Part shown: in pieces, positions 3,399 through 25,385 of the stretch
How positions within the stretch are numbered: the first letter of the stretch is position 1
Layout of the letters: every line of letters starts with the position of its first letter
IMG/VR virus record: IMGVR_UViG_3300032250_000088
Location: 1 to 54,346 of that record
DNA: 54,346 nucleotides
From: a virus
Taxonomy: Duplodnaviria; Caudoviricetes
Direction: 5' to 3' (one strand)
The notes under the pieces: model-generated
Seen by the model: only the letters and a program-made list of their open reading frames with translations
Databases searched by the model: none
Told to the model about the DNA's origin: nothing
Position numbers and translations under genes: made by a program

Positions 3399-3716
3399 TT
3401 ATACTCCTAGGTACTGTTGAAGATTACTTTTCTTCGGCAAGTAGATTGTTGTTCCTGGTTCAAAATCATAGATAGGATCTTTTAGAGTATCCATATTTCT
3501 TTGAGTAAACACCCACCATAACTTTGGGGTTCCATATAAATCATAAGATAAGAGATCAGGGCGATGTCTATATTGATTTTCGATGGTATATTTAAAATCA
3601 TCATTTTCTGCAGGAATCGGTCTAATAGACATTAACTCCAAATAGAGATTATTCTGTTTGGTGTTTGCCCATGGACTCGAATTCTTGTAAGTGACTGATT
3701 TTTTAAAAGTTGTCAT
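3399..3716 (-). CDS. gp53: Baseplate wedge protein gp53-like (LysM-like)
   Basis: RPDLLSYDLYGTPKLWWVF...N...DPIYDFEPGTTIYLP motif. Confidence 0.75.
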   Translation of the reverse strand: MTTFKKSVTYKNSSPWANTKQNNLYLELMSIRPIPAENDDFKYTIENQYRHRPDLLSYDLYGTPKLWWVFTQRNMDTLKDPIYDFEPGTTIYLPKKSNLQQYLGV

Positions 3717-3717
3717 A

Positions 3718-4764
3718 TTAGATGTATCCTACAGCATTACCGCTTGCATAATCTTGTAAACTAAATTTACGCAATAGCTGTCTGTTATAAATTGGTGTAA
3801 CTGTTACAGAAATTGTACTGAGGACCGGAACCCATGTGTCACTAGGAAACTGACTGCTACATTTAATGTAGTTTACATCATCCGGTAGGTCAATGGTAAA
3901 ACTTTTTATTATAACTGGAACACTGTTAAACACACCAGGACCGTAGCCACTAAGTTGACAAACTACTGGAGGGTTGCCTGCATAAGTGCTTCCACCAAAA
4001 AACATTTTAGTTGCAGTTTTAAAGAAGTGAGTGGCCTGTATCCAATAGTTACCATCCTGCTCTGTTTCGCAACTGAACTCACCAGATATAGTAATGTCTT
4101 CTATCTGACTGTTCTTGTATCCGTTAAAAGGATAGTTGTTATGCACAGGATCAACTACAGTGTAGTTTGCTTTGCTGGTAACACTAACTTTAGGAGTATA
4201 AGGCCATACTACGCCGTTGGTAGATTCTAGGCGACTGAATGCGTTTCCAAACAGGCCAAAATTACAATTGATTCTAACTCGCCAATCACTAGCAGGAGAG
4301 CTTGTTAATTTCACTGCCGCACTATCTGATTTAAATAACTCTCCTGCTGCTGGAATATTTTTTCCTCTAAAAATGCTGAGTACATTATTAAGTTGCCCGG
4401 CTGCAGAGCTCACTGCTCCTGCAATACTTCCAAGACTCCCTAGTGCGCCACCTAGCCCTAATCCATTAATACTTCGGCCAATGTCAGATGCTGTATTTGA
4501 TAATCCGCTTAATGATCCAAGTGCTGTTTGAATAGGATTCCCTATACCGTTAAATGCTGTTCCTAAGTTTGGCAATCCAGCAGTTGCTCCGTTTAGAGCA
4601 CTACCAATGCCGCCACCTAGATCATTGACTAGGCCATCTAGCTTGGCTTTTTCTTCTCCAAAGCTGATACCAGACAAACTGCCGCCCGTTGAGTTTGAAG
4701 CAGAGCTGAATAAGCTGCTGGCATTTCCTAACACTTTGGTGAAAGGATTTATATTTAGACCCAT
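3718..4764 (-). CDS. Putative tail-tube-fold baseplate protein (gp48/gp54-like) with Gly/Ser-rich N-terminus
   Basis: WPYTPKVSV...ANY...ITISGEF...PPVVCQLSGYG...VPVIIKSFTIDLP pattern; first gene of baseplate operon. Confidence 0.5.
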   Translation of the reverse strand: MGLNINPFTKVLGNASSLFSSASNSTGGSLSGISFGEEKAKLDGLVNDLGGGIGSALNGATAGLPNLGTAFNGIGNPIQTALGSLSGLSNTASDIGRSINGLGLGGALGSLGSIAGAVSSAAGQLNNVLSIFRGKNIPAAGELFKSDSAAVKLTSSPASDWRVRINCNFGLFGNAFSRLESTNGVVWPYTPKVSVTSKANYTVVDPVHNNYPFNGYKNSQIEDITISGEFSCETEQDGNYWIQATHFFKTATKMFFGGSTYAGNPPVVCQLSGYGPGVFNSVPVIIKSFTIDLPDDVNYIKCSSQFPSDTWVPVLSTISVTVTPIYNRQLLRKFSLQDYASGNAVGYI

Positions 4765-4818: not shown

Positions 4819-5700
4819 ATGGAGAACCCTATAACTATGACAATCAGTTCGCAACCACCTAAAATCAAGTACTTAACCAACAAAGATCTGCTACGAGAAA
4901 TTCATTTAAGCAAGAATACCTACTGTAGTTTTACAAGTCCCGACTACAGCGAGTACGATTTAATTTTGCCAAATATCAGTAAAATAAATGTTAGAACAAT
5001 TGCCGAAGCCAAGCGAAATCAAGCAGCTAGATTAAGCAAACGAGCACACGAACTAGCAGTTATAACAGGCGGAAAAAAATTACCTGCTAAAGATTTTGAA
5101 GTAGATTATAAAACTATCAAGAAAGTAGATGTGGTATTTCGCATCATGACCTTCGAGCATATTCCACTTGCTCCTGGTCGTAAAAAGACTTTAAAGAATA
5201 CCGCTGACAGTCACGACAAAGTAAACTTTCCTCCCTTCCAGCATTGGAAGTTTGATGATAACGACAATCTAATACTGGTTGGCAAAAGTCATTGGAAGGG
5301 CGATTTAATTACTGGCGAGTTTAATAAAGAACACGGCAAAATGACTAACAATCTAGCTCGTATGTTTTTAAAGCTCTGTGAAAGATATGCAACAAGAGGT
5401 AACGTTCGTGGATATACTTACAACGATGAAATGCGCGGCCAGGCTATACTTCAGCTTACTCAGATCGGTCTTCAGTTTGATGAGAGCAAGTCGGATAATC
5501 CTTTTGCTTATTATACTGCCGCCGTTACTAACAGTTTTGTCCGAATCATCAACATCGAAAAACGAAACCAAAACATCCGAGATGATATTCTTGAAATGAA
5601 TGGTATGAATCCAAGTTGGACTAGACAGAACAGCGGAGGCAGCAACTTTGGTGCCGGAACAGGTGCCAGTTCTGGCGAAGGCGGTGGTGATTGGGATTGA
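4819..5700 (+). CDS. gp55: Late-transcription sigma factor (true start possibly 4837)
   Basis: YLTNKDLLREI and RGYTYNDEMRGQAILQL...FDESKSDNPFAYYT...NSFVRIINIEKRNQNIRD match gp55; adjacent to gp47/gp46 as in T4-like phages. Confidence 0.9.
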   Translation: MENPITMTISSQPPKIKYLTNKDLLREIHLSKNTYCSFTSPDYSEYDLILPNISKINVRTIAEAKRNQAARLSKRAHELAVITGGKKLPAKDFEVDYKTIKKVDVVFRIMTFEHIPLAPGRKKTLKNTADSHDKVNFPPFQHWKFDDNDNLILVGKSHWKGDLITGEFNKEHGKMTNNLARMFLKLCERYATRGNVRGYTYNDEMRGQAILQLTQIGLQFDESKSDNPFAYYTAAVTNSFVRIINIEKRNQNIRDDILEMNGMNPSWTRQNSGGSNFGAGTGASSGEGGGDWD

Positions 5701-5740: not shown

Positions 5741-6751
5741 ATGTCATTATTCAAAAAAGTAGCTTGTTTCACCGATATACATTTCGGTTTAAAATCTGGA
5801 AGTCGTACACATAATCAAGATTGCGAAGATTTCGTAAATTGGTTTTGTGATACTGCTAAAGCCGAGGGTGCAGAAACCTGCATCTTCCTAGGCGACTGGC
5901 ATCATAATCGTAATACTACCGATGTTAGTACTATGAATTATACTGTCAGTAACCTAGAACGGCTGAGTAAAACCTTTGAGAAAGTCTATGTTATTCTAGG
6001 CAATCACGACGAGTTCTATAAAGACAAGCGTGAAATTCACAGTCTTGAATTTGCTAGACTGTTTCCTAACATTGAACTAGTAAATGAAACACTAACTGAA
6101 GGTGATGTAACTATCATGCCTTGGTTAGTAGGAGACGAATGGCGTTCTGTATCTAAAATAAAGAGTCGTTATATCTTTGGACACTTAGAGTTGCCGTTGT
6201 TTATGATGAATGCTATGGTGCAGATGCCTGATCATGGTCAGTTGCAAGCTGATCACTTTGTCAATCAAGAGTATGTATTCAGCGGACACTTTCATAAGCG
6301 TCAAAGCAAAGGCAGTATTACCTATATTGGTAATTGTTTCCCGCACAACTATGCAGATGCAGGAGACGACGATCGTGGTATGATGATGTTAGAATGGGGT
6401 GGCAAGCCCGAATATCGTACTTGGCCCGGACAACCTACATTTAGAACTTATAAACTAAGTCAAATCATTGATCGGCCAGATGAATTGTTGCGTGAGCGTA
6501 TGCATTGCCGCGTAACTATTGACTTGCCTATCAGCTTCGAAGAAGCCAACTTCATTAAAGAAACATTCATGCCACAGTATAAGTTGCGTGAATTAATGCT
6601 TATTCCAGAAAAAGTAGAAATTGAATCCGGAAATGCTCCTATTGATATCAACTTTGAAAGTGTTGATACAATCGTTATGAATCAAATCAACGCCATCGAC
6701 AGCGACACTTTTGACAAAGGCCTGTTATTGGAAATTTATAGAGAACTATGA
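5741..6751 (+). CDS. gp47: Recombination endonuclease subunit (Mre11/SbcD-like)
   Basis: Metallophosphoesterase motifs DIHFG, GDWHH, GNHD, GHFH. Confidence 0.95.
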   Translation: MSLFKKVACFTDIHFGLKSGSRTHNQDCEDFVNWFCDTAKAEGAETCIFLGDWHHNRNTTDVSTMNYTVSNLERLSKTFEKVYVILGNHDEFYKDKREIHSLEFARLFPNIELVNETLTEGDVTIMPWLVGDEWRSVSKIKSRYIFGHLELPLFMMNAMVQMPDHGQLQADHFVNQEYVFSGHFHKRQSKGSITYIGNCFPHNYADAGDDDRGMMMLEWGGKPEYRTWPGQPTFRTYKLSQIIDRPDELLRERMHCRVTIDLPISFEEANFIKETFMPQYKLRELMLIPEKVEIESGNAPIDINFESVDTIVMNQINAIDSDTFDKGLLLEIYREL

Positions 6752-8526
6752 TTAAAATTAAAAATCTAACTGTACGCAATTTCATGAGTGTGGGCGCACA
6801 GACACAAGCTATTGATTTCGACAAAGGACAGTTAACTCTAGTATTAGGTGAAAATCTAGATCTAGGAGGTGACGACAGCGGAGCTCGTAACGGTACAGGT
6901 AAAACTACAATCATTAACGGACTCAGCTATGCTATCTACGGCAATGCTCTCACAAACATCAAGAAAGACAACCTTGTTAATAAAATTAACAGCAAGGGCA
7001 TGTTGGTTACTGTGAGTTTTGAAAAAGACGGTATTGAATATCATATCGAGCGTGGCCGTAAGCCTAATGTATTGAAGTTTACTGTTAACGGTCACGCACA
7101 CGAAGACAAGAATCAAGACGAAAGTCAAGGCGATAGTAGAGAAACACAAAAAGAAATTGAAGATGTGTTCGGGATGACGCACGACATGTTCAAGCATCTT
7201 GTTGCGCTGAATACCTACACCGAGCCTTTCCTTAGCATGAAGGCAGGTGATCAACGAGCAATTATTGAACAGTTGTTGGGTATTACTCAACTAAGTGAAA
7301 AAGCTGAAGCATTAAAAGAACAAATTAAAAATAGCAAGGATGCTATTGCTACTGAAAACACAAAGATTGAAACTATTCGAGCAAGTAATGATAGAATCCA
7401 ACAAAGCATTGATGCGCTTGAACGAAAAGCCAAAATGTGGACCGAGCAAAACGAAGTAAGCGTTACTAATCTTGCTAAAGCCATCGAGCAGTTGCTAGAT
7501 ATTGATATTGATCAAGAAATTCTAGCACATAGGGCATTAGATGCGTATAATGCCAAACGTAAAAGTATTAATGAAATTACCAGCTGGATTAAACGATGCG
7601 AACTAGACGAAGTCAGAGAACAAAAAGAAATAGACAGGCTGAAAGCAGACATTGCCAGTTTAGAAAATCACACTTGCCATAGTTGTGGTCAAGGATTTCA
7701 CGACGACAAACAAGTAGCATTACTAGAGAAGAAGCGCAAAGAATTACAGGAAACCGCATTGCAGGCATTAGCCACAAACACACAGTGGACTGAACATACT
7801 GATGCGCTTAAAGAATTAGGTGAATTAGGTGAGATGCCTACAGTAACCTACGACAATCTAGAACAGGCACTTAATCACAAGAATACACTCGGCAGTTTAG
7901 AGCGTGATTTAGAGCTAAAGGCTGCTGAAACTAATCCTTACATTGAACAAATCGAAGAACTGCGTCATACTGCCGTACAGATAATTGATTATAACGTTCT
8001 TAATGAAATGGTTCGTGTTAAAGATCATCAAGAGTTCTTACATAAGCTGTTGACAAACAAAGACAGCTTTATCCGCAAGAGGATTATTGATCAGAACTTG
8101 GCCTATTTGAATCAACGATTGACTTATTATCTAGATCGTATCGGATTGCCGCATACAGTTGAGTTTCAGAACGACCTAAGTGTTATTATTACACAACTAG
8201 GACAAGACTTAGACTTTGATAATCTAAGTCGTGGAGAACGCAATCGCTTGATCTTGTCATTAAGTTGGGCATTCCGCGATGTGTGGGAAAACTTATATCA
8301 GGCAATCAACCTATTGTTTATTGACGAACTTGTAGATTCAGGTATGGATGCTAGTGGTGTCGAATCAAGTATTGCAGTCTTAAAGAAGATGACTCGTGAA
8401 AGAAACAAGAATGTATTCTTGATCAGTCATAGAGATGACTTAACCAGCAGGGTGAATCATGTATTGAGAGTTGTAAAAGAAAACGGATTCACTAGCTACA
8501 GCAATGATGTGGAGATTGTTGCTTGA
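6748..8526 (+). CDS. gp46: Recombination endonuclease ATPase subunit (Rad50/SbcC-like)
   Basis: Walker A NGTGKTT, coiled coil with CHSC zinc hook, signature LSRGE, Walker B LLFIDE, ISH. Confidence 0.95.
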   Translation: MIKIKNLTVRNFMSVGAQTQAIDFDKGQLTLVLGENLDLGGDDSGARNGTGKTTIINGLSYAIYGNALTNIKKDNLVNKINSKGMLVTVSFEKDGIEYHIERGRKPNVLKFTVNGHAHEDKNQDESQGDSRETQKEIEDVFGMTHDMFKHLVALNTYTEPFLSMKAGDQRAIIEQLLGITQLSEKAEALKEQIKNSKDAIATENTKIETIRASNDRIQQSIDALERKAKMWTEQNEVSVTNLAKAIEQLLDIDIDQEILAHRALDAYNAKRKSINEITSWIKRCELDEVREQKEIDRLKADIASLENHTCHSCGQGFHDDKQVALLEKKRKELQETALQALATNTQWTEHTDALKELGELGEMPTVTYDNLEQALNHKNTLGSLERDLELKAAETNPYIEQIEELRHTAVQIIDYNVLNEMVRVKDHQEFLHKLLTNKDSFIRKRIIDQNLAYLNQRLTYYLDRIGLPHTVEFQNDLSVIITQLGQDLDFDNLSRGERNRLILSLSWAFRDVWENLYQAINLLFIDELVDSGMDASGVESSIAVLKKMTRERNKNVFLISHRDDLTSRVNHVLRVVKENGFTSYSNDVEIVA

Positions 8527-8756
8527 CGACAGAAGCTCACGATAAAATGATCCGTGCCTTTCAGGAATATTTCAAATGGCAGGATCGTTTTGAGTACAGA
8601 GGCAGCGATGAGGCAGGAGTAAAGGCACGGTATTGGCTAAGCGAAATACGCAACGAAGCATCGATTAGGCGAGTAGAAATACAAACAAAACGAGACGAAC
8701 GCAAACAAGCCAGAAAAGGCATGGTAGGAAGGCCCCCCAAGATACATAAGGGATGA
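8523..8756 (+). CDS. Small basic helical protein, possibly Hc1 histone-like DNA-binding protein
   Basis: TTG start overlapping gp46 stop with GGAG SD; GSDEAGVKARYWLSEIR resembles Hc1 GNKAAAQRVR pattern; C-terminal GRPPK. Confidence 0.45.
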   Translation: MTTEAHDKMIRAFQEYFKWQDRFEYRGSDEAGVKARYWLSEIRNEASIRRVEIQTKRDERKQARKGMVGRPPKIHKG

Positions 8757-9187
8757 CATGGTTGTATAAGAAAAAAATCGTTGAAGAAATCTCAGAAGAG
8801 TATATCGGATTCGTGTATCTTATTACAAATGTTATCTCTGGACGCAAGTACATAGGCAAAAAACTAGCAAAATTCGCTAAAACAACATACAAAACTGTCA
8901 CACTCAAAAACGGCAAGAAGAAGAAAAAGAAGATTAGAGGCAAGATCGAAAGCGACTGGAAGGACTATTATGGTTCTAGCGATGCGCTAACAGCAGATGT
9001 ACAGGCACTAGGCAAAGAAAACTTCACCAGAGAAATTCTATTTTACTGCACAACTAAATCAGAATGCAGCTACATCGAGGCAAGAGAACAATTCAAACAC
9101 AAAGTTCTAGAATCTACTGACTGGTATAACGGTCACATACAGGTTCGAGTTCACGGCTCACATATCCTCAAAAAACCCAAAAAGTAA
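8753..9187 (+). CDS. Stand-alone GIY-YIG (Seg-like) nuclease domain protein, 144 aa
   Basis: GFVYLIT...KYIGKK, YYGSS, FTREIL, E in YIEAREQ, WYN; no C-terminal DNA-binding modules. Confidence 0.85.
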   Translation: MTWLYKKKIVEEISEEYIGFVYLITNVISGRKYIGKKLAKFAKTTYKTVTLKNGKKKKKKIRGKIESDWKDYYGSSDALTADVQALGKENFTREILFYCTTKSECSYIEAREQFKHKVLESTDWYNGHIQVRVHGSHILKKPKK

Positions 9188-9194
9188 TAGACAG

Positions 9195-9705
9195 ACACAG
9201 CCGCAAGGCACAGATAGGCTCAATAAATCCAGGCAAATAACTGCCAAATAAGCTCGCACCGGCGTTGTTAGAGTGCCCTTAAAGCTGGATCTCGGATCGC
9301 AGTCAACGGAATTCCCTACTTGGTAGAGGGGTTGTAACAGTAGTATCCTTAACAGGACCATGATCGGATATGCCTATAGAACCGGTTTACTGTACAAGAA
9401 AGTATTAATCAAGGCTAAAAGAGGATGAAGAATCCACGGCTGTAAGTATGTTAGCGTATATTTGCAGACCCGCCGTCGTATTAAGACGCAGCTAAAGGTA
9501 CCGGACGACCGCCTTAGTAATGCTGTAACGCTAAGTGACCATTGTGCAACTCAGATAATGTTCATTTTTTAGCCCGCAAGGGCTAAGTGTGACTGAACAA
9601 TCTAGATAATATTTAAAGTGCTTCGCACTTAATAATACATCACTGTTAAAAGAAAAGAAATTCGTTGAGCGTCTAGCGAAAACGAATATGAGCTTTAGCT
9701 CATAG
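9195..9705 (+). ncRNA. Putative large structured non-coding RNA (family unknown; strand inferred from GNRA loops and G-U pairs)
   Basis: 552-nt gap in a gene-dense genome with many stems, two GCAA tetraloops, an 11-bp stem with 3 G-U pairs and a 7-bp loop-distal complement. Confidence 0.6.
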
Positions 9706-9709
9706 CTGT

Positions 9710-9717
9710 AATAAATA
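9710..9717 (+). promoter_or_regulatory. Late promoter (AATAAATA)
   Basis: Near-consensus late box 22 nt upstream of ATG 9740. Confidence 0.65.
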
Positions 9718-9739
9718 ACAAATAAGTCTTGGAAGTGGA

Positions 9740-11212
9740 ATGAGAATAATACACCTATTAGAAAATCGTAATAACTATCTCTATGAAGGTTTAGGGAATG
9801 CCGAGTTACGATCTGTTAAGTTATGGGAAAGTGCTGGCCATACAATTAAAGAAGCAGCACTTACACCTGATCAGATACAAAGTCTATTCGCTGAGATTGA
9901 AAAGGGTGCTACTGCTAGTGGCGACAACAGAACTGTGTTGGGCAAAGGCAAAGATGCCGCCGAAGCTGTTAACAAAGCATGGGTAGATTTAAAAGACAAA
10001 ATATACAACAGTAAGCCTATGTCAGATTTTGCTGCTCAATATGACAAGGCTGCTGAGAAATTAAAACAGGCAACTGGCGGCGATGCTGGTGCAATGAAAT
10101 ACATCAACAAGTATCGCAAGTTTGCTGAAGAGCATCCTATTTTGCAAGGAGCTATCTATGCTGCTCTTATTGCCGCAGCAGGTATTACTGGTGTTGCTCC
10201 CGGAGGAGCTGCGTTGCTAGGATTGTTTAAACTAGTTGACCAAGCGATCCAAGGAAAAGACATTCGATCTGCAATGTGGAGCGGAGTTAAAACTGGTGCT
10301 GCTGCCTACGGTTCGGCTAAACTTGGACAGTTCTTAAAAGGAACTCCGACCGGAGATGTTCCATCAACAGATGAAATTCCTACAGGATTTAATGCTCGCC
10401 CTGATGATTATGCTTCAGCAGTTACAGCACCAGCGGATGTTGTTTCCAAAGGCTACGGAGCAGTAATGAAATCTGCAATGTCTGCGGGACGCAATTATGC
10501 AGAAAACGGCGGACTTACTGATGCTTCGAGTATTCAAAGTGCTGCTGAAGAATTTGGCAATGCATTAGCAGCCCAAGGTTTACGAGGTGACCGAGTACAG
10601 ACTATGGTAGATGTATTCAAAACATCAGCCAAGGGTGCGGCAGCTAGAGCACTAGGCGGTACTGCTCAGTCTACAATGGGCGGTGCGCTACAGGCAGTAA
10701 CTAATTCAATCAATCGATCTGGTAAACGATTAAGTGAAGGGCAAGTATACATGATCTTTAATCGTGTGGCCCGTGAAAATATCACAGAAGGTCCAATGGA
10801 TGCTATCAAAGGGTTTGCAGGCAAAGCCATGGACAAGATTAAAACCGTTGGCACAAATTTAACAACCAAAGTTACAGCGGATAAATTAAATTCAGCTTGG
10901 CAAAAAGCAGGAAACCCAACTGACAGCGATGAACTTGCTCAGTTCTTGGAAAAGCAAGGTGTGAACGCAGATATTGTTAAGCAAGTATACGGATCATTAA
11001 AAATACCCGCACCTGGATCTGCTAGCACAGCCGCACCTGCAACGGATATCGAAGCAGTTAAAAAGATAGTTGCCGGATTGCCAACTGATAGAAAAGTAAG
11101 ACTGTTAAAATTTTTAGAGAAAGGTGGAACAAGTAAATCTACTGCACCAGCAGCTACTACCGCAGCACCTGAAAAAGATTCACTTGGTCGAATCGAACCA
11201 ACAATGTCATAA
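9740..11212 (+). CDS. Putative internal head/ejection protein, 490 aa
   Basis: Late promoter; many L/I-x-E sites (LLE, LYE, LWE, IKE, LSE, ITE); one hydrophobic stretch; Ala-rich. Confidence 0.5.
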   Translation: MRIIHLLENRNNYLYEGLGNAELRSVKLWESAGHTIKEAALTPDQIQSLFAEIEKGATASGDNRTVLGKGKDAAEAVNKAWVDLKDKIYNSKPMSDFAAQYDKAAEKLKQATGGDAGAMKYINKYRKFAEEHPILQGAIYAALIAAAGITGVAPGGAALLGLFKLVDQAIQGKDIRSAMWSGVKTGAAAYGSAKLGQFLKGTPTGDVPSTDEIPTGFNARPDDYASAVTAPADVVSKGYGAVMKSAMSAGRNYAENGGLTDASSIQSAAEEFGNALAAQGLRGDRVQTMVDVFKTSAKGAAARALGGTAQSTMGGALQAVTNSINRSGKRLSEGQVYMIFNRVARENITEGPMDAIKGFAGKAMDKIKTVGTNLTTKVTADKLNSAWQKAGNPTDSDELAQFLEKQGVNADIVKQVYGSLKIPAPGSASTAAPATDIEAVKKIVAGLPTDRKVRLLKFLEKGGTSKSTAPAATTAAPEKDSLGRIEPTMS

Positions 11213-11221
11213 GGACTTCAA

Positions 11222-12532
11222 ATGAAAATAAATGAAATACTAGTTGAATCACAATTGCAAGAAGGTCCTATGTTGGACAAGTTTGGTAAAGCAGTAGGCG
11301 GAGTAGCCAGTGGTGTTGCCAAAGGTGTTGGAGCAGTAGCTGGCGGTATTGCTGGTATGGGCAGTGCATTTAAGAAAGGTTTTAATGCAGGTAAAACCAC
11401 TGTAGCAGGTGACGACGAAGCTCCTGCGAAGCCTAGTATGATTGGTGACTTGGCAAAAGGACTAGGTAAAGATGCATATAAAGGTGCAACAGGTTATGAT
11501 TTGCCAGGACAAGATAAGGCCAGCTTAAAGAAAAAAGCAGCACAAGGCGGAGCAGAGCCAGCAGCAGCGCCAGCAGCAGCGCCAGCAGCAACGCCAGCAG
11601 CAGCACCTGGAGCGGCACCGGCAGCAGCACCTGGAGCGGCACCAGCAGCAGCACCTGGAGCGGCACCGGCAGCAGGAGCAGCAGCACCAGCAGCACCGGC
11701 AGCTAAGGCAGCTAAGGCAGCAGCACCGAATCCTAAAGCAGACACAGCTTATGCACAAGCACAAAAAGCAATTGCTGGACTACAACCTGAACAGAAAAAA
11801 GAAATCGTAACAATGTTACAGGCTGATCCTAAAGTTAAAGCGGCAATGACTGCAAAACCTGCTGCTAAGCCGGCAGCGCCAGCAGCAAAAACGGCTAAGC
11901 CAGCGGCACCAGCCGATGCAGGATCCGGAGCAATGGGTGCTATGGCAAGCCAATTAACCAAAGGTGGGGCAGCAGAACCAAACACAATGGCCAATGCTCC
12001 TGTGAGCAAAACAAATAAGGCTAAACCTGGTAATCCAAATGCAGCACCAGCACCGGGCATGACTGCAGACGGTCAACCACATTGGGACCCAGCTACCGGT
12101 AAAGGTGCAAAATACGACGGTGTTACAGGCGAAATGACACCAGCATGGAAAGCTGAACAGGATAAGAAAGCTGCTGAAAAACAAACTAAAACAGCACCAG
12201 CACAACAAGATAAAGCACCAGCAACACCAACCACCGGACAAGCTGCAACACAGGCAGCTGATGCAGGTAGTAATCCAGAGCAAGCAGCGTTAGATGCAAT
12301 GAAAGCTAAAAATCCTAAATTAGCAGGTATGATGGCACAGGCAGGTATGGATGATCAAGGCAACGATGTTGCACCTGCTAAGAAGCGTGGTGGTCGCAAA
12401 GCTAAACCAGCAGCGCAGACGCAAGCAGAAATTGATGCTGACCGTGAAAGAATTATGGGTGTAACTTCTGACAGCATTGTTCGTAGACAACCTATGATGG
12501 CTGAAAGTTTTAGTTTGTTTAGAAAGCGTTAA
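11222..12532 (+). CDS. Ala/Pro/Lys-rich putative internal head protein, 436 aa
   Basis: MKINEILVESQLQEG leader with L/I-x-E sites; long low-complexity body; AGGA SD. Confidence 0.5.
   Translation: MKINEILVESQLQEGPMLDKFGKAVGGVASGVAKGVGAVAGGIAGMGSAFKKGFNAGKTTVAGDDEAPAKPSMIGDLAKGLGKDAYKGATGYDLPGQDKASLKKKAAQGGAEPAAAPAAAPAATPAAAPGAAPAAAPGAAPAAAPGAAPAAGAAAPAAPAAKAAKAAAPNPKADTAYAQAQKAIAGLQPEQKKEIVTMLQADPKVKAAMTAKPAAKPAAPAAKTAKPAAPADAGSGAMGAMASQLTKGGAAEPNTMANAPVSKTNKAKPGNPNAAPAPGMTADGQPHWDPATGKGAKYDGVTGEMTPAWKAEQDKKAAEKQTKTAPAQQDKAPATPTTGQAATQAADAGSNPEQAALDAMKAKNPKLAGMMAQAGMDDQGNDVAPAKKRGGRKAKPAAQTQAEIDADRERIMGVTSDSIVRRQPMMAESFSLFRKR
11557..11668 (+). repeat. In-frame tandem repeats: ~3x12 nt then 3x24 nt (AAAPGAAP)
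   Basis: GCAGCAGCACCTGGAGCGGCACC(G/A) at 11597, 11621, 11645; GCCAGCAGCA(G/A)C units from 11557. Confidence 0.9.
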
Positions 12533-24620: not shown

Positions 24621-24890
24621 ATGAAAATAGAAAGCGATAAAGACTTTGAACAACTTCGAGCTCAGTTTGCTGGCTGGCGCAAACGCTTTCCTATGTTTAC
24701 ACACGATGTGCAACGAATTGAAAAAATGATCAACGAGCACATACAAACACACAGTAAAATTATGGTGTTGCATCGACAGACTAAGAATAGAAGTCACTTA
24801 GAAAAAGCTCAACAGGAGATAGATGCTATCAATAAAATAATAGACACTGTGGAAAAAATGGAACTAATGGCTATGCTGAGCCGCGGATAA
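24621..24890 (+). CDS. Hypothetical helical protein, 89 aa
   Basis: Fills gap after terminator; CTTAAATA at 24609-24616. Confidence 0.7.
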   Translation: MKIESDKDFEQLRAQFAGWRKRFPMFTHDVQRIEKMINEHIQTHSKIMVLHRQTKNRSHLEKAQQEIDAINKIIDTVEKMELMAMLSRG

Positions 24891-24962
24891 ATAAAGTATC
24901 TAGAATTTATTATGCGGCTCCCACCGCGTATGACCTAGAACGTCAATCATAAGGAGAAACAA

Positions 24963-25385
24963 ATGGGACGTCCAATTAACAAAAGATTTTTCGGTGGTAT
25001 TATAGGCTCATCAGCAGACATTACCAATAACATTCCAGTAGAGGCAGCATTCATTGCTGGCACCGCAAGAACAGCGCATGAGGGAAATGCTGAAATTCAT
25101 ATTGTAAAACAAAAATCAGCTCGTAAATTTGAAGTCAAAGGTCACGATGATGTTCCTGCAGCAATTTGTCGTTTAGTCGATAAAGCAAACTGGGACGATT
25201 CATCCACAGTTACAGAAGGTCAAATGGTAATTATTGGTTATTATAACGGTCAAGCAAAAACATTGCGTTCATTGACTAACAAGATTGCCACAGACTTTAA
25301 CAGTGTTCGCTATAAGTGGGCTATTAACTCTGGTGTAGGCGATGACTCTTCTACCACAAACGTTATTATTTTAACACTACCATAA
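24963..25385 (+). CDS. Putative virion protein, 140 aa
   Basis: GATAAATA at 24886, TAAGGAG SD, first gene of appendage cluster. Confidence 0.7.
   Translation: MGRPINKRFFGGIIGSSADITNNIPVEAAFIAGTARTAHEGNAEIHIVKQKSARKFEVKGHDDVPAAICRLVDKANWDDSSTVTEGQMVIIGYYNGQAKTLRSLTNKIATDFNSVRYKWAINSGVGDDSSTTNVIILTLP

Follow-up and report, generated by a model that had tools for sequence, protein, structure and literature searches.

What occupies the long, densely structured gap that lies directly behind a stand-alone GIY-YIG nuclease gene in a T4-like phage, and do gene and gap constitute one system? The question is raised by the IMG/VR record IMGVR_UViG_3300032250_000088 (Duplodnaviria; Caudoviricetes), a viral record of 54,346 bp with an estimated completeness of 15%, the entire length of which was analysed and is hereafter termed the window. 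A preliminary description of this DNA had proposed that the gap encodes a pseudoknotted RNA, which might be either a scaffold or guide for the nuclease or an independent large non-coding RNA. A structured RNA linked to the nuclease gene is indeed present; as to its role, a partnership with the nuclease is doubtful, and the evidence leans, if not heavily, towards a large non-coding RNA that is autonomous and shares a transcript with the I-TevI-like nuclease gene ahead of it. The gene and the core of the RNA comprise the following features, the P2 and P3 helices being absent from the preliminary description:

8753-9187, plus strand: stand-alone GIY-YIG nuclease gene, 144 amino acids (aa), of the families PF19835 and phrog_447
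9440-9534, plus strand: domain 3, a doubly pseudoknotted fold, with covariation across 123 sequences
9440-9449/9458-9467, plus strand: P1 hairpin, with covariation
9451-9457/9528-9534, plus strand: PK1 pseudoknot, compensatory in 7/7 pairs, 95.5% of cells paired
9475-9479/9505-9509, plus strand: P2, the second pseudoknot, with covariation
9489-9492/9522-9525, plus strand: P3, with covariation
9495-9499/9511-9515, plus strand: P4, AAGG(T)/(G)CCTT, with covariation

As first noted, the gap that begins at the stop codon of the GIY-YIG gene is the largest in the window, measuring 552 nucleotides (nt; 9188-9739) when gaps are reckoned between open reading frames (ORFs) of at least 90 aa. It is likewise richer in GC than other gaps (0.420, against 0.355-0.385 in three of them), with a value of 0.465 in its 9251-9534 portion and of 0.414 for the window as a whole. 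The pseudoknot that had been proposed between the loop of the first hairpin and a downstream strand holds up, with changes on both sides in all seven of its pairs. Across 123 distinct homologues, which thus supply the covarying structure that the preliminary description had suggested seeking in relatives, 94.9% of the cells of domain 3 as a whole are paired, as against 75.7% upon shuffling. The covariation score is 0.566 versus 0.206 in the shuffled alignments; none of 500 shuffles attains 0.566, and slid controls do not exceed 0.125. The pairs include 386 G-U as opposed to 33 A-C combinations, from which it follows, as had been suggested from G-U pairs and GNRA loops, that the RNA is read from the plus strand. 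Further, the lengths between alignment anchors in 112 regions are evenly spread with respect to multiples of three (34, 36 and 42), implying that the gap is non-coding on either strand. ORFs of at least 50 aa do occur in 70 of these 112 regions, but they lie mostly on the minus strand and no frame is kept, and conserved small ORFs were accordingly rejected. RNAalifold, with 0 pairs predicted on a gappy alignment (A2), and the single-sequence fold of 9528-9740, with a z-score of -2.51, were uninformative. We conclude that the gap holds a real, plus-strand, pseudoknotted and covarying structured RNA.

The relatives were gathered by two routes. First, homologues of the protein encoded downstream of the gap led to 29 loci. 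Second, a 24-nt degenerate pattern taken from the middle of the gap matched at least 120 viral contigs; the same pattern matched 30 genome contigs, 11 of which were true homologues by nhmmer. Related contigs reach 345-355 kb, one of them, of 354,680 bp, being rated complete, and the runs that hold the stretch, 20 rows belonging to 14 studies, bear the labels of freshwater, lake or aquatic metagenomes. A blastn search of the gap against 50,697 phage records matched nothing.

The RNA is considerably larger than domain 3, and its remaining parts, together with a promoter-like element close to the end of the gap, are:

9188-9250, plus strand: 5' leader with hairpins at 9200-9209 and 9232-9245, specific to a subclade
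9251-9397, plus strand: domain 1, Polynucleobacter-1 RNA (Rfam RF01718), matching the full model, positions 1-141
9410-9434, plus strand: purine-rich linker AAGGCTAAAAGA and small hairpin 9422-9434, conserved in an alignment of 20 gaps
9547-9560, plus strand: box A, CAACTCAGATAATG, whose 7-nt core matches that of box B
9568-9587, plus strand: hairpin between the boxes, with a GCAA loop in the window and different loops elsewhere, and visible covariation
9598-9611, plus strand: box B, CAATCTAGATAATA, direct-repeat partner of box A by core identity
9616-9630, plus strand: hairpin with a CTTCG loop, with visible compensatory variants, missing in some relatives
9660-9703, strand left open: 3' module, a helix (9660-9666/9681-9687) around GAGCG...AGCGAA followed by a hairpin (9688-9703), with compensatory Watson-Crick variants
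9711-9718, plus strand: late-promoter-like ATAAATAA, 22 nt before the ATG at 9740

The preliminary description had held that a match to a known Rfam family unrelated to the nuclease would count against a nuclease-RNA system. Such a match exists, but over the first 147 nt only: RF01718 scores 77.1 bits at 9251-9397 (cut-off 37) and 64-121 bits in 26 related loci, whereas the rest of the gap falls below every family cut-off, the best other model being cow-rumen-2 (19.1 versus 66 bits). Of 26 loci that have the domain-3 motif, 25 also have RF01718, and none of 7 loci lacking that motif does; hence, the two travel together and the catalogued family forms the opening domain of a larger RNA. Throughout the lineage, the gap can be aligned over its full length of about 500 nt. 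Aside from RF01718, Rfam returned at E<=10 just three sub-threshold matches at the level of chance, with no self-cleaving ribozyme or riboswitch at that threshold on 9100-9800; a hammerhead core considered for the 3' module misfits in sequence and, with Rfam empty, was dropped. The paper that introduced Polynucleobacter-1 names the motif solely in a table, where it is rated a probable RNA with a probably cis-regulatory role and its sources are given as Burkholderiales and fresh water or estuary; no function is assigned in the passages that bear on it (Weinberg 2010, PMC2864571). In the full-text literature the name turned up in that paper alone, and its main-text passages, supplements aside, make no mention of a GIY-YIG gene. 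The present RNA has in common with the published motif the full-model match and the freshwater setting (PMC2864571). It differs in that the 141 positions of the Rfam model here form the initial domain of a conserved region that spans about 450-500 nt, and a version of this region, described below, has no counterpart of the model. An orphan Rfam motif is thus extended here into a multi-domain RNA, which was in part already known and whose boxes covary in an unusual manner.

All the stems originally noted are present where they had been placed, but they differ in their conservation. The hairpin at 9440-9467, PK1, 9495-9499/9511-9515 and the inner hairpin at 9568-9587 covary; the outer pairing TGTTCA/TGAACA (9559-9564/9594-9599) is unconserved, and the 5' hairpins belong to a 63-nt leader found in only 4 of 20 aligned gaps (the window, L004, L013 and L014). 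For the hairpins at 9568-9587 and 9616-9630, a formal count on the gappy alignment gives a weak signal, with 75.7% versus 67.5% of cells paired. A purine-rich tract at 9647-9660 forms the spacer before the 3' module, the strand of which we leave open because, on the minus strand, 9687-9704 reads as the last hairpin followed by TTCGTTTTCG and scores as an intrinsic terminator. Elsewhere, two bacterial contigs from metagenome-assembled genomes (MAGs), L163 (3600-3850) and L179 (590-820), carry three copies of the 3' module (GATGAGCGACAGCGAAGAAC and hairpin), one of them inverted; these precede tandem repeats of about 70 nt, near genes that appear by eye to be Doc-like toxin and recombinase-like genes.

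The boxes vary in an unusual way. They are direct repeats rather than complements: in 109 of 112 unique sequences the two have exactly the same 7-nt core, even as this core differs among phages (AGATAAT, GCATAAT, GGATAAT, GGATGAA, AGATGAG and others); the mutual information at their variable positions is 0.88, 0.79 and 0.74, and the distance between the boxes varies among loci. Being matched within and variable between phages is the pattern expected of two sites that are read by a single trans-acting factor of drifting specificity. Searches for a complement to the boxes within 3 kb gave scattered matches only, 9 of them clustered in the gp46 gene of close relatives, and none was found in the complete relative of 354,680 bp (G001); the window has a complement with one mismatch at 8126-8138, which is at the level of chance. 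The box motif itself recurs 4 times elsewhere in the window against 1.5 expected, a number reached by 5 of 100 shuffles and so not beyond chance; it is no general promoter of the window. An identity of the boxes as sigma-70 -10 elements was rejected, for the variants GATGAA, GATGAG and GTTGAA violate the -10 rule, and translational bypassing between the matching boxes was dropped since no frame is conserved and the spacing varies. One relative (L034, 8540-8560) is a natural deletion that has removed the 3' strand of PK1, box A and the hairpin, with domain 3 fused to box B.

Two further versions of the region were found. Twelve loci (L199, L216, L217, L220, L225, L229, L235, L237, L246, L247, L257 and L267, at about 1630-2060 in each) carry behind the nuclease gene a type II RNA, which is without RF01718 and has another conserved 5' domain of about 210 nt, while retaining the GGTACCGG..CAACCGCC core, boxes A and B, the hairpin between them and the 3' module. 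In L029 and L030 (about 3479-3982 in the former), the gap behind a 67%-identical nuclease gene is a third version: the boxes and the 3' module are present, along with a GGGTTCGAACC stretch resembling a T-arm, and there is no RF01718, domain-3, tRNA or Rfam match.

The case for an autonomous RNA comes from loci in which it is parted from the nuclease. Counting only unique RNA loci whose upstream flank measures 800 nt or more, we obtained 111; 7 of these have no nuclease gene, and in one more it lies 1.1 kb off, behind an inserted ORF. The 7 nuclease-less loci retain the pseudoknot with new sequences (CTGATAT/ATATCAG in L082, CCAACTTT/AAAGTTGG in L163), and in them boxes A and B continue to match, even where the core occurs in no other locus. 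Two of them (L157 and L163) are bacterial MAG contigs in which the RNA is beside recombinase and toxin-antitoxin-like genes. In three others (L046, L050 and L057), an ORF of the PDDEXK_15 or phrog_244 type, i.e. a PD-(D/E)XK nuclease unrelated to the GIY-YIG protein, is situated upstream of the RNA: in L057 it ends about 10 nt before domain 1 and was scored against PF24608 and phrog_244, while in L046, and in L050, where some 300 nt separate its end from the domain-3 motif, the assignment was made by eye from similar N-termini. Given that folds and boxes are under selection where there is no nuclease gene, we read the nuclease as an operon partner and not as an RNA-guided protein. In L046, the stretch that separates the PD-(D/E)XK-like ORF from the RNA contains a fivefold tandem repeat of GTTACCCTAAAGCA as well as an ORF that looks RNase H-like by eye. 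At 3911-4304 and 5169-5240, L082 has a permuted tmRNA gene and a tRNA gene, the former matching RF04321 at 92.5 bits; neither tRNA nor tmRNA was found in the window, L029, L007, L011 or L022.

On this evidence, the gap would specify one large plus-strand RNA, built of the Polynucleobacter-1 domain, the doubly pseudoknotted domain, the boxes flanking a hairpin and further hairpins, which would end before the late-promoter-like element of the next gene. The transcript of the GIY-YIG gene would probably run on in the 3' direction to yield this RNA, which would constitute the functional unit by itself, with the nuclease as its habitual operon partner. Such an RNA may serve as a stable folded scaffold, and both boxes could be read by one element-specific factor, either protein or RNA.

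Contigs from metatranscriptomes are compatible with this co-transcription. Four runs, one from each of four studies, have contigs that match the nuclease ORF as well as the RNA, and three contigs, each from a different study, span the stop codon (X18, 9044-9493; X17, 9134-9390; X15, 9153-9277). This bridging and the close spacing fit co-transcription of the two without proving it. No sigma-70-like promoter and no plus-strand terminator were found in the gap (9188-9739). On 9681-10200, the four RNA runs give near-zero cover, with two short pieces from X17 (9941-9993 and about 10109); the RNA-run contigs continue past about 9630 with unlike sequence and are hence uninformative as to the 3' end or the silence of the next gene.

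Several lines of evidence weigh against the autonomy of the RNA, and most of them concern the intimacy of its association with the nuclease. The nuclease gene adjoins the RNA in 103 of the 111 RNA loci, and, in the reverse direction, 72 of 76 assessable nuclease loci carry the RNA or a variant (52 with a strong domain 3, 20 with a weaker or variant one), these being drawn from the best 80 of at least 588 nuclease relatives, 4 of which were too short to judge; as the two sets share contigs, the counts are not independent. The junction between nuclease and RNA is unbroken in 107 of 108 loci, as against 52 of 89 for that between gp46 and the nuclease. RF01718 begins 0-63 nt past the nuclease stop codon (0-13 nt in loci other than those with the 5' leader). 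In the complete relative of 354,680 bp, both nuclease and RNA are single-copy and 12 nt apart, and the type II RNA, too, follows the nuclease, so that the pairing outlives a swap of the 5' domain. The RNA is therefore linked to the nuclease more tightly than to any other neighbour, beyond plain synteny. Moreover, the nuclease lacks a DNA-binding domain of its own, and the basic hairpin of relatives without the RNA is shorter by about 6 residues. Other points in the same direction pertain to the sampling and to the reading itself: the pattern that retrieved the loci sits inside domain 3, which forces the conservation of 9497-9520, while more divergent versions of the RNA escape it and the sets of loci overlap; most contigs are fragments, and so the local absence of a nuclease gene is compatible with a copy elsewhere; the contigs of RNA libraries prove neither strand nor ends nor a single transcript and might reflect carry-over of DNA; and the factor that would read the boxes is a postulate.

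The best-surviving alternative is that nuclease and RNA form a particle, a single system in which the GIY-YIG protein would bind the RNA as its scaffold, guide or regulator; we nevertheless hold this to be rather doubtful. What speaks for it is the two-way linkage, the stability of the junction, the abutment of gene and RNA, the single copy of each in the complete genome, the persistence of the linkage across two types of RNA, and a catalytic domain that bears nothing but the basic hairpin. The last of these was anticipated in the preliminary description, and both of its claims about the protein proved sound. PF19835 covers residues 3-129 of 144 (E 5.1e-33), with no second Pfam domain and with phrog_447 as the PHROG match (E 2.1e-37), and an AlphaFold2 model of high predicted confidence (pLDDT 91.5) comprises the GIY-YIG core, in which the basic insertion is predicted to form a beta-hairpin, and nothing else. 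The sole high-probability structural match in Foldseek is the catalytic domain of I-TevI (1LN0/1MK0; probability 0.98, TM 0.67 on the target, E 0.08-0.11). T4 endonuclease II, which was considered as an orthologue, was not among the Foldseek matches listed, to rank 50, and matches to isocitrate dehydrogenase were ignored for their low values (probability about 0.2 or less, TM 0.2). Neither phmmer nor a profile search against the PDB sequences gave anything significant (best E 0.065).

Against such a particle stand, first, the structural selection on the RNA in the 7 loci without the nuclease, including the 3 with an unrelated PD-(D/E)XK protein upstream. Second, the nuclease family occurs without the RNA: its relatives occur in 504 cultured-phage records, all at less than 60% identity, and in 7 of 7 examined cultured phages the gene, the product of which shares the basic hairpin, has no match to the RNA by nhmmer or covariance model, being followed by a gap of 0-148 nt or an overlapping gene. 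Among the 76 close relatives of the nuclease, 4 likewise have an ORF directly downstream in place of the RNA. Third, pairwise distances across 77 loci correlate less between nuclease and RNA (r 0.21) than between nuclease and gp46 (0.31) or RNA and gp46 (0.46), and there is no excess co-divergence of nuclease and RNA (partial r 0.08 given gp46), though the shortness of the protein makes this a weak test. Finally, there is no guide-like segment of 15 nt or more, the sole unpaired segments that co-vary being the 7-nt box cores, which stay matched without the nuclease. The suggestion of a guide is accordingly not supported, either by a variable segment of guide length or by a complement to the boxes within 3 kb or in the complete relative. 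In sum, the co-occurrence that had been proposed for examination is real and strong in both directions in one lineage of large freshwater T4-like phages, but it is not obligatory.

The preliminary description had also invoked the layout of the HEARO/omega-RNA systems of IscB and TnpB. The likeness stands insofar as a compact nuclease gene is abutted by a large RNA on the same strand. In TnpB systems the RNA is at the 3' end of the ORF, and in HEARO it is 5' of the ORF; here, it is 3' of the ORF, and no HEARO or IS605-orfB RNA family matched 9100-9800 at E<=10. The differences extend to the nucleases, which are of the RuvC fold, with or without HNH, in those systems and solely GIY-YIG here, and to the absence at this locus of transposon ends and a guide-length variable segment and the survival of the RNA without the nuclease. 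Put more specifically, a ribonucleoprotein of the GIY-YIG protein and the RNA, in which the latter would target, scaffold or gate the nuclease and the PD-(D/E)XK replacements would be analogous, is a proposition we view with slightly more reserve than the particle in general. We know of no earlier RNA-dependent enzyme of the GIY-YIG superfamily; if true, this reading would make the pair a two-gene module maintained in large freshwater phages.

The I-TevI-like fold and weaker PHROG matches to homing endonucleases raise the alternative of a largely fixed, free-standing homing endonuclease beside its target RNA gene, the slot before the RNA being a landing place for nucleases, which we deem unlikely. 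It would account for the fact that L057 has the other nuclease family in this very slot, while L050 and L046 have it just upstream of the RNA, and for alleles that are shuffled relative to their flanks (gp46 76% and nuclease 94% in L015; gp46 75% and nuclease 58% in L006). It would also accord with the lower correlation with gp46 of the nuclease than of the RNA and with the frequent insertions upstream of the nuclease, which measure 351-4563 nt and affect 37 of 89 gp46-nuclease junctions. The catalytic fold and the phage setting beside conserved genes are shared with I-TevI and the Seg enzymes, and T4 segB lies within a cluster of tRNA and small-RNA genes. However, the linker or DNA-binding domains of those enzymes (zinc finger, NUMOD, helix-turn-helix) are missing here, and no candidate cleavage site was identified. 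Further, while I-TevI and Seg enzymes are sporadic, the present nuclease is near-universal in the lineage (93% of loci, or 104 of 111 if the gene 1.1 kb off is counted) and single-copy, the shuffled alleles and the second nuclease family noted above pointing the other way as to mobility. It is also well conserved, the 104 unique proteins having 141-159 aa and 33 columns being invariant among 31 diverse ones, and the family is widespread in T4-like phages at other positions.

That the RNA serves the late genes downstream as a cis-regulatory leader, in keeping with the source table for RF01718 (probably cis-regulatory; Weinberg 2010, PMC2864571), is distinctly improbable. ORFs with a shared N-terminus follow the RNA in about half of the loci. 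Among the 1652 ORFs scanned, 51 of the 87 with the N-terminus M-[KR]-I-x-E-[IL]-[IL] start within 500 nt past the motif, and in the window (9740-12532) and the loci past the RNA it may also be written M-[KR]-[ILV]-x-[DEQ]-[IL]-[IL]-x-E. The proteins are of low complexity and fast-evolving, and this N-terminus is reminiscent of the capsid-targeting sequence of T4 internal head proteins. Against a leader, 29 of 103 loci have no plus-strand ORF of at least 60 aa starting at +150 to +520 nt downstream, 11 further loci have only short (61-92 aa) or distant ORFs without the shared N-terminus, and homologues of the downstream gene occur without the RNA in 6 loci (L007, L011, L012, L017, L019 and L022). 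The RNA lies 200-490 nt from the start codon, and ATAAATAA, which is invariant in 20 of 20 aligned gaps and resembles the T4 late promoter, stands between RNA and ORF, so that a late transcript would exclude the RNA. Past the RNA, 63 of 103 loci have ATAAATA and the other 40 lack it. In a contig of 346,856 bp (L011 and L199), the homologue of the 490-aa protein encoded at 9740 in the window is about 130 kb from the nuclease-RNA pair, and no RNA precedes its gene. The second of the two copies of ATAAATAA in the window (24887-24894) is at the 5' edge of a freshwater-2 RNA (RF02980, 24887-24965; 52.7 bits, cut-off 49.9) that directly precedes an ORF at 24963, as if a late transcript began at this edge.

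Least probable is a replication-origin element, that is, a structured primer or origin transcript with iteron-like boxes read on the DNA by an element-specific initiator, for although the boxes are identical within and variable between elements, the locus adjoins recombination and replication genes (with the RNase H-like ORF, by eye, in L046), the bacterial MAG copies lie near tandem repeats and maintenance genes, and a purine-rich tract is present (9647-9660), there are only two boxes at variable spacing, the strong G-U bias bespeaks selection on domain 3 at the RNA level, and no initiator gene was identified.

The genes around the nuclease-RNA locus are:

5741-6748, plus strand: gp47-like metallophosphoesterase gene
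6748-8526, plus strand: gp46-like SMC/AAA ATPase gene
8523-8756, plus strand: 77-aa ORF between the gp46-like gene and the nuclease, of no Pfam or PHROG family
9740-11212, plus strand: 490-aa ORF of no family, fast-evolving
11222-12532, plus strand: ORF of no family

The stop codon of the 77-aa ORF overlaps the start of the GIY-YIG gene (ATGA), and its homologues are likewise placed in 14 of the 29 loci to which the homologues of the downstream protein had led. Beyond 12532 follow baseplate, spike-like and T4-type portal genes; with gp47/gp46-like genes before it and structural genes after it, the gap marks where, in this T4-like phage, the recombination module gives way to the structural genes.

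Among phage and environmental RNAs, the closest parallels in general character to the autonomous RNA favored here are the GOLLD, ROOL and raiA class, which are similarly several hundred nt long, multi-domain, pseudoknotted and without an assigned function; there is no match to them in sequence or model, and the present RNA is smaller and tied to one protein gene. Domain 3 shares with cow-rumen-2 (RF02947) a UUAGC-loop hairpin, CCGCC, a ACAGGAUGACCG-like stretch and GUAA, but at an E of 0.66 this is a resemblance only, and no match to that model was found at E<=1 in 13 related loci.

In terms of its significance, a catalogued orphan motif, Polynucleobacter-1, turns out to be just the first domain of a far larger RNA, the doubly pseudoknotted core of which is among the better covariation-supported folds obtainable from sequence alone. 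This RNA is common in large freshwater T4-like phages, as attested by the at least 120 viral contigs that match a single pattern. The boxes, matched within a genome and varying between genomes, point to a specific trans-acting reader and provide an experimental handle for it. The locus is thus a well-defined candidate for a new phage RNA function, be it that of a stable RNA, of a partner to the nuclease or of an origin element.

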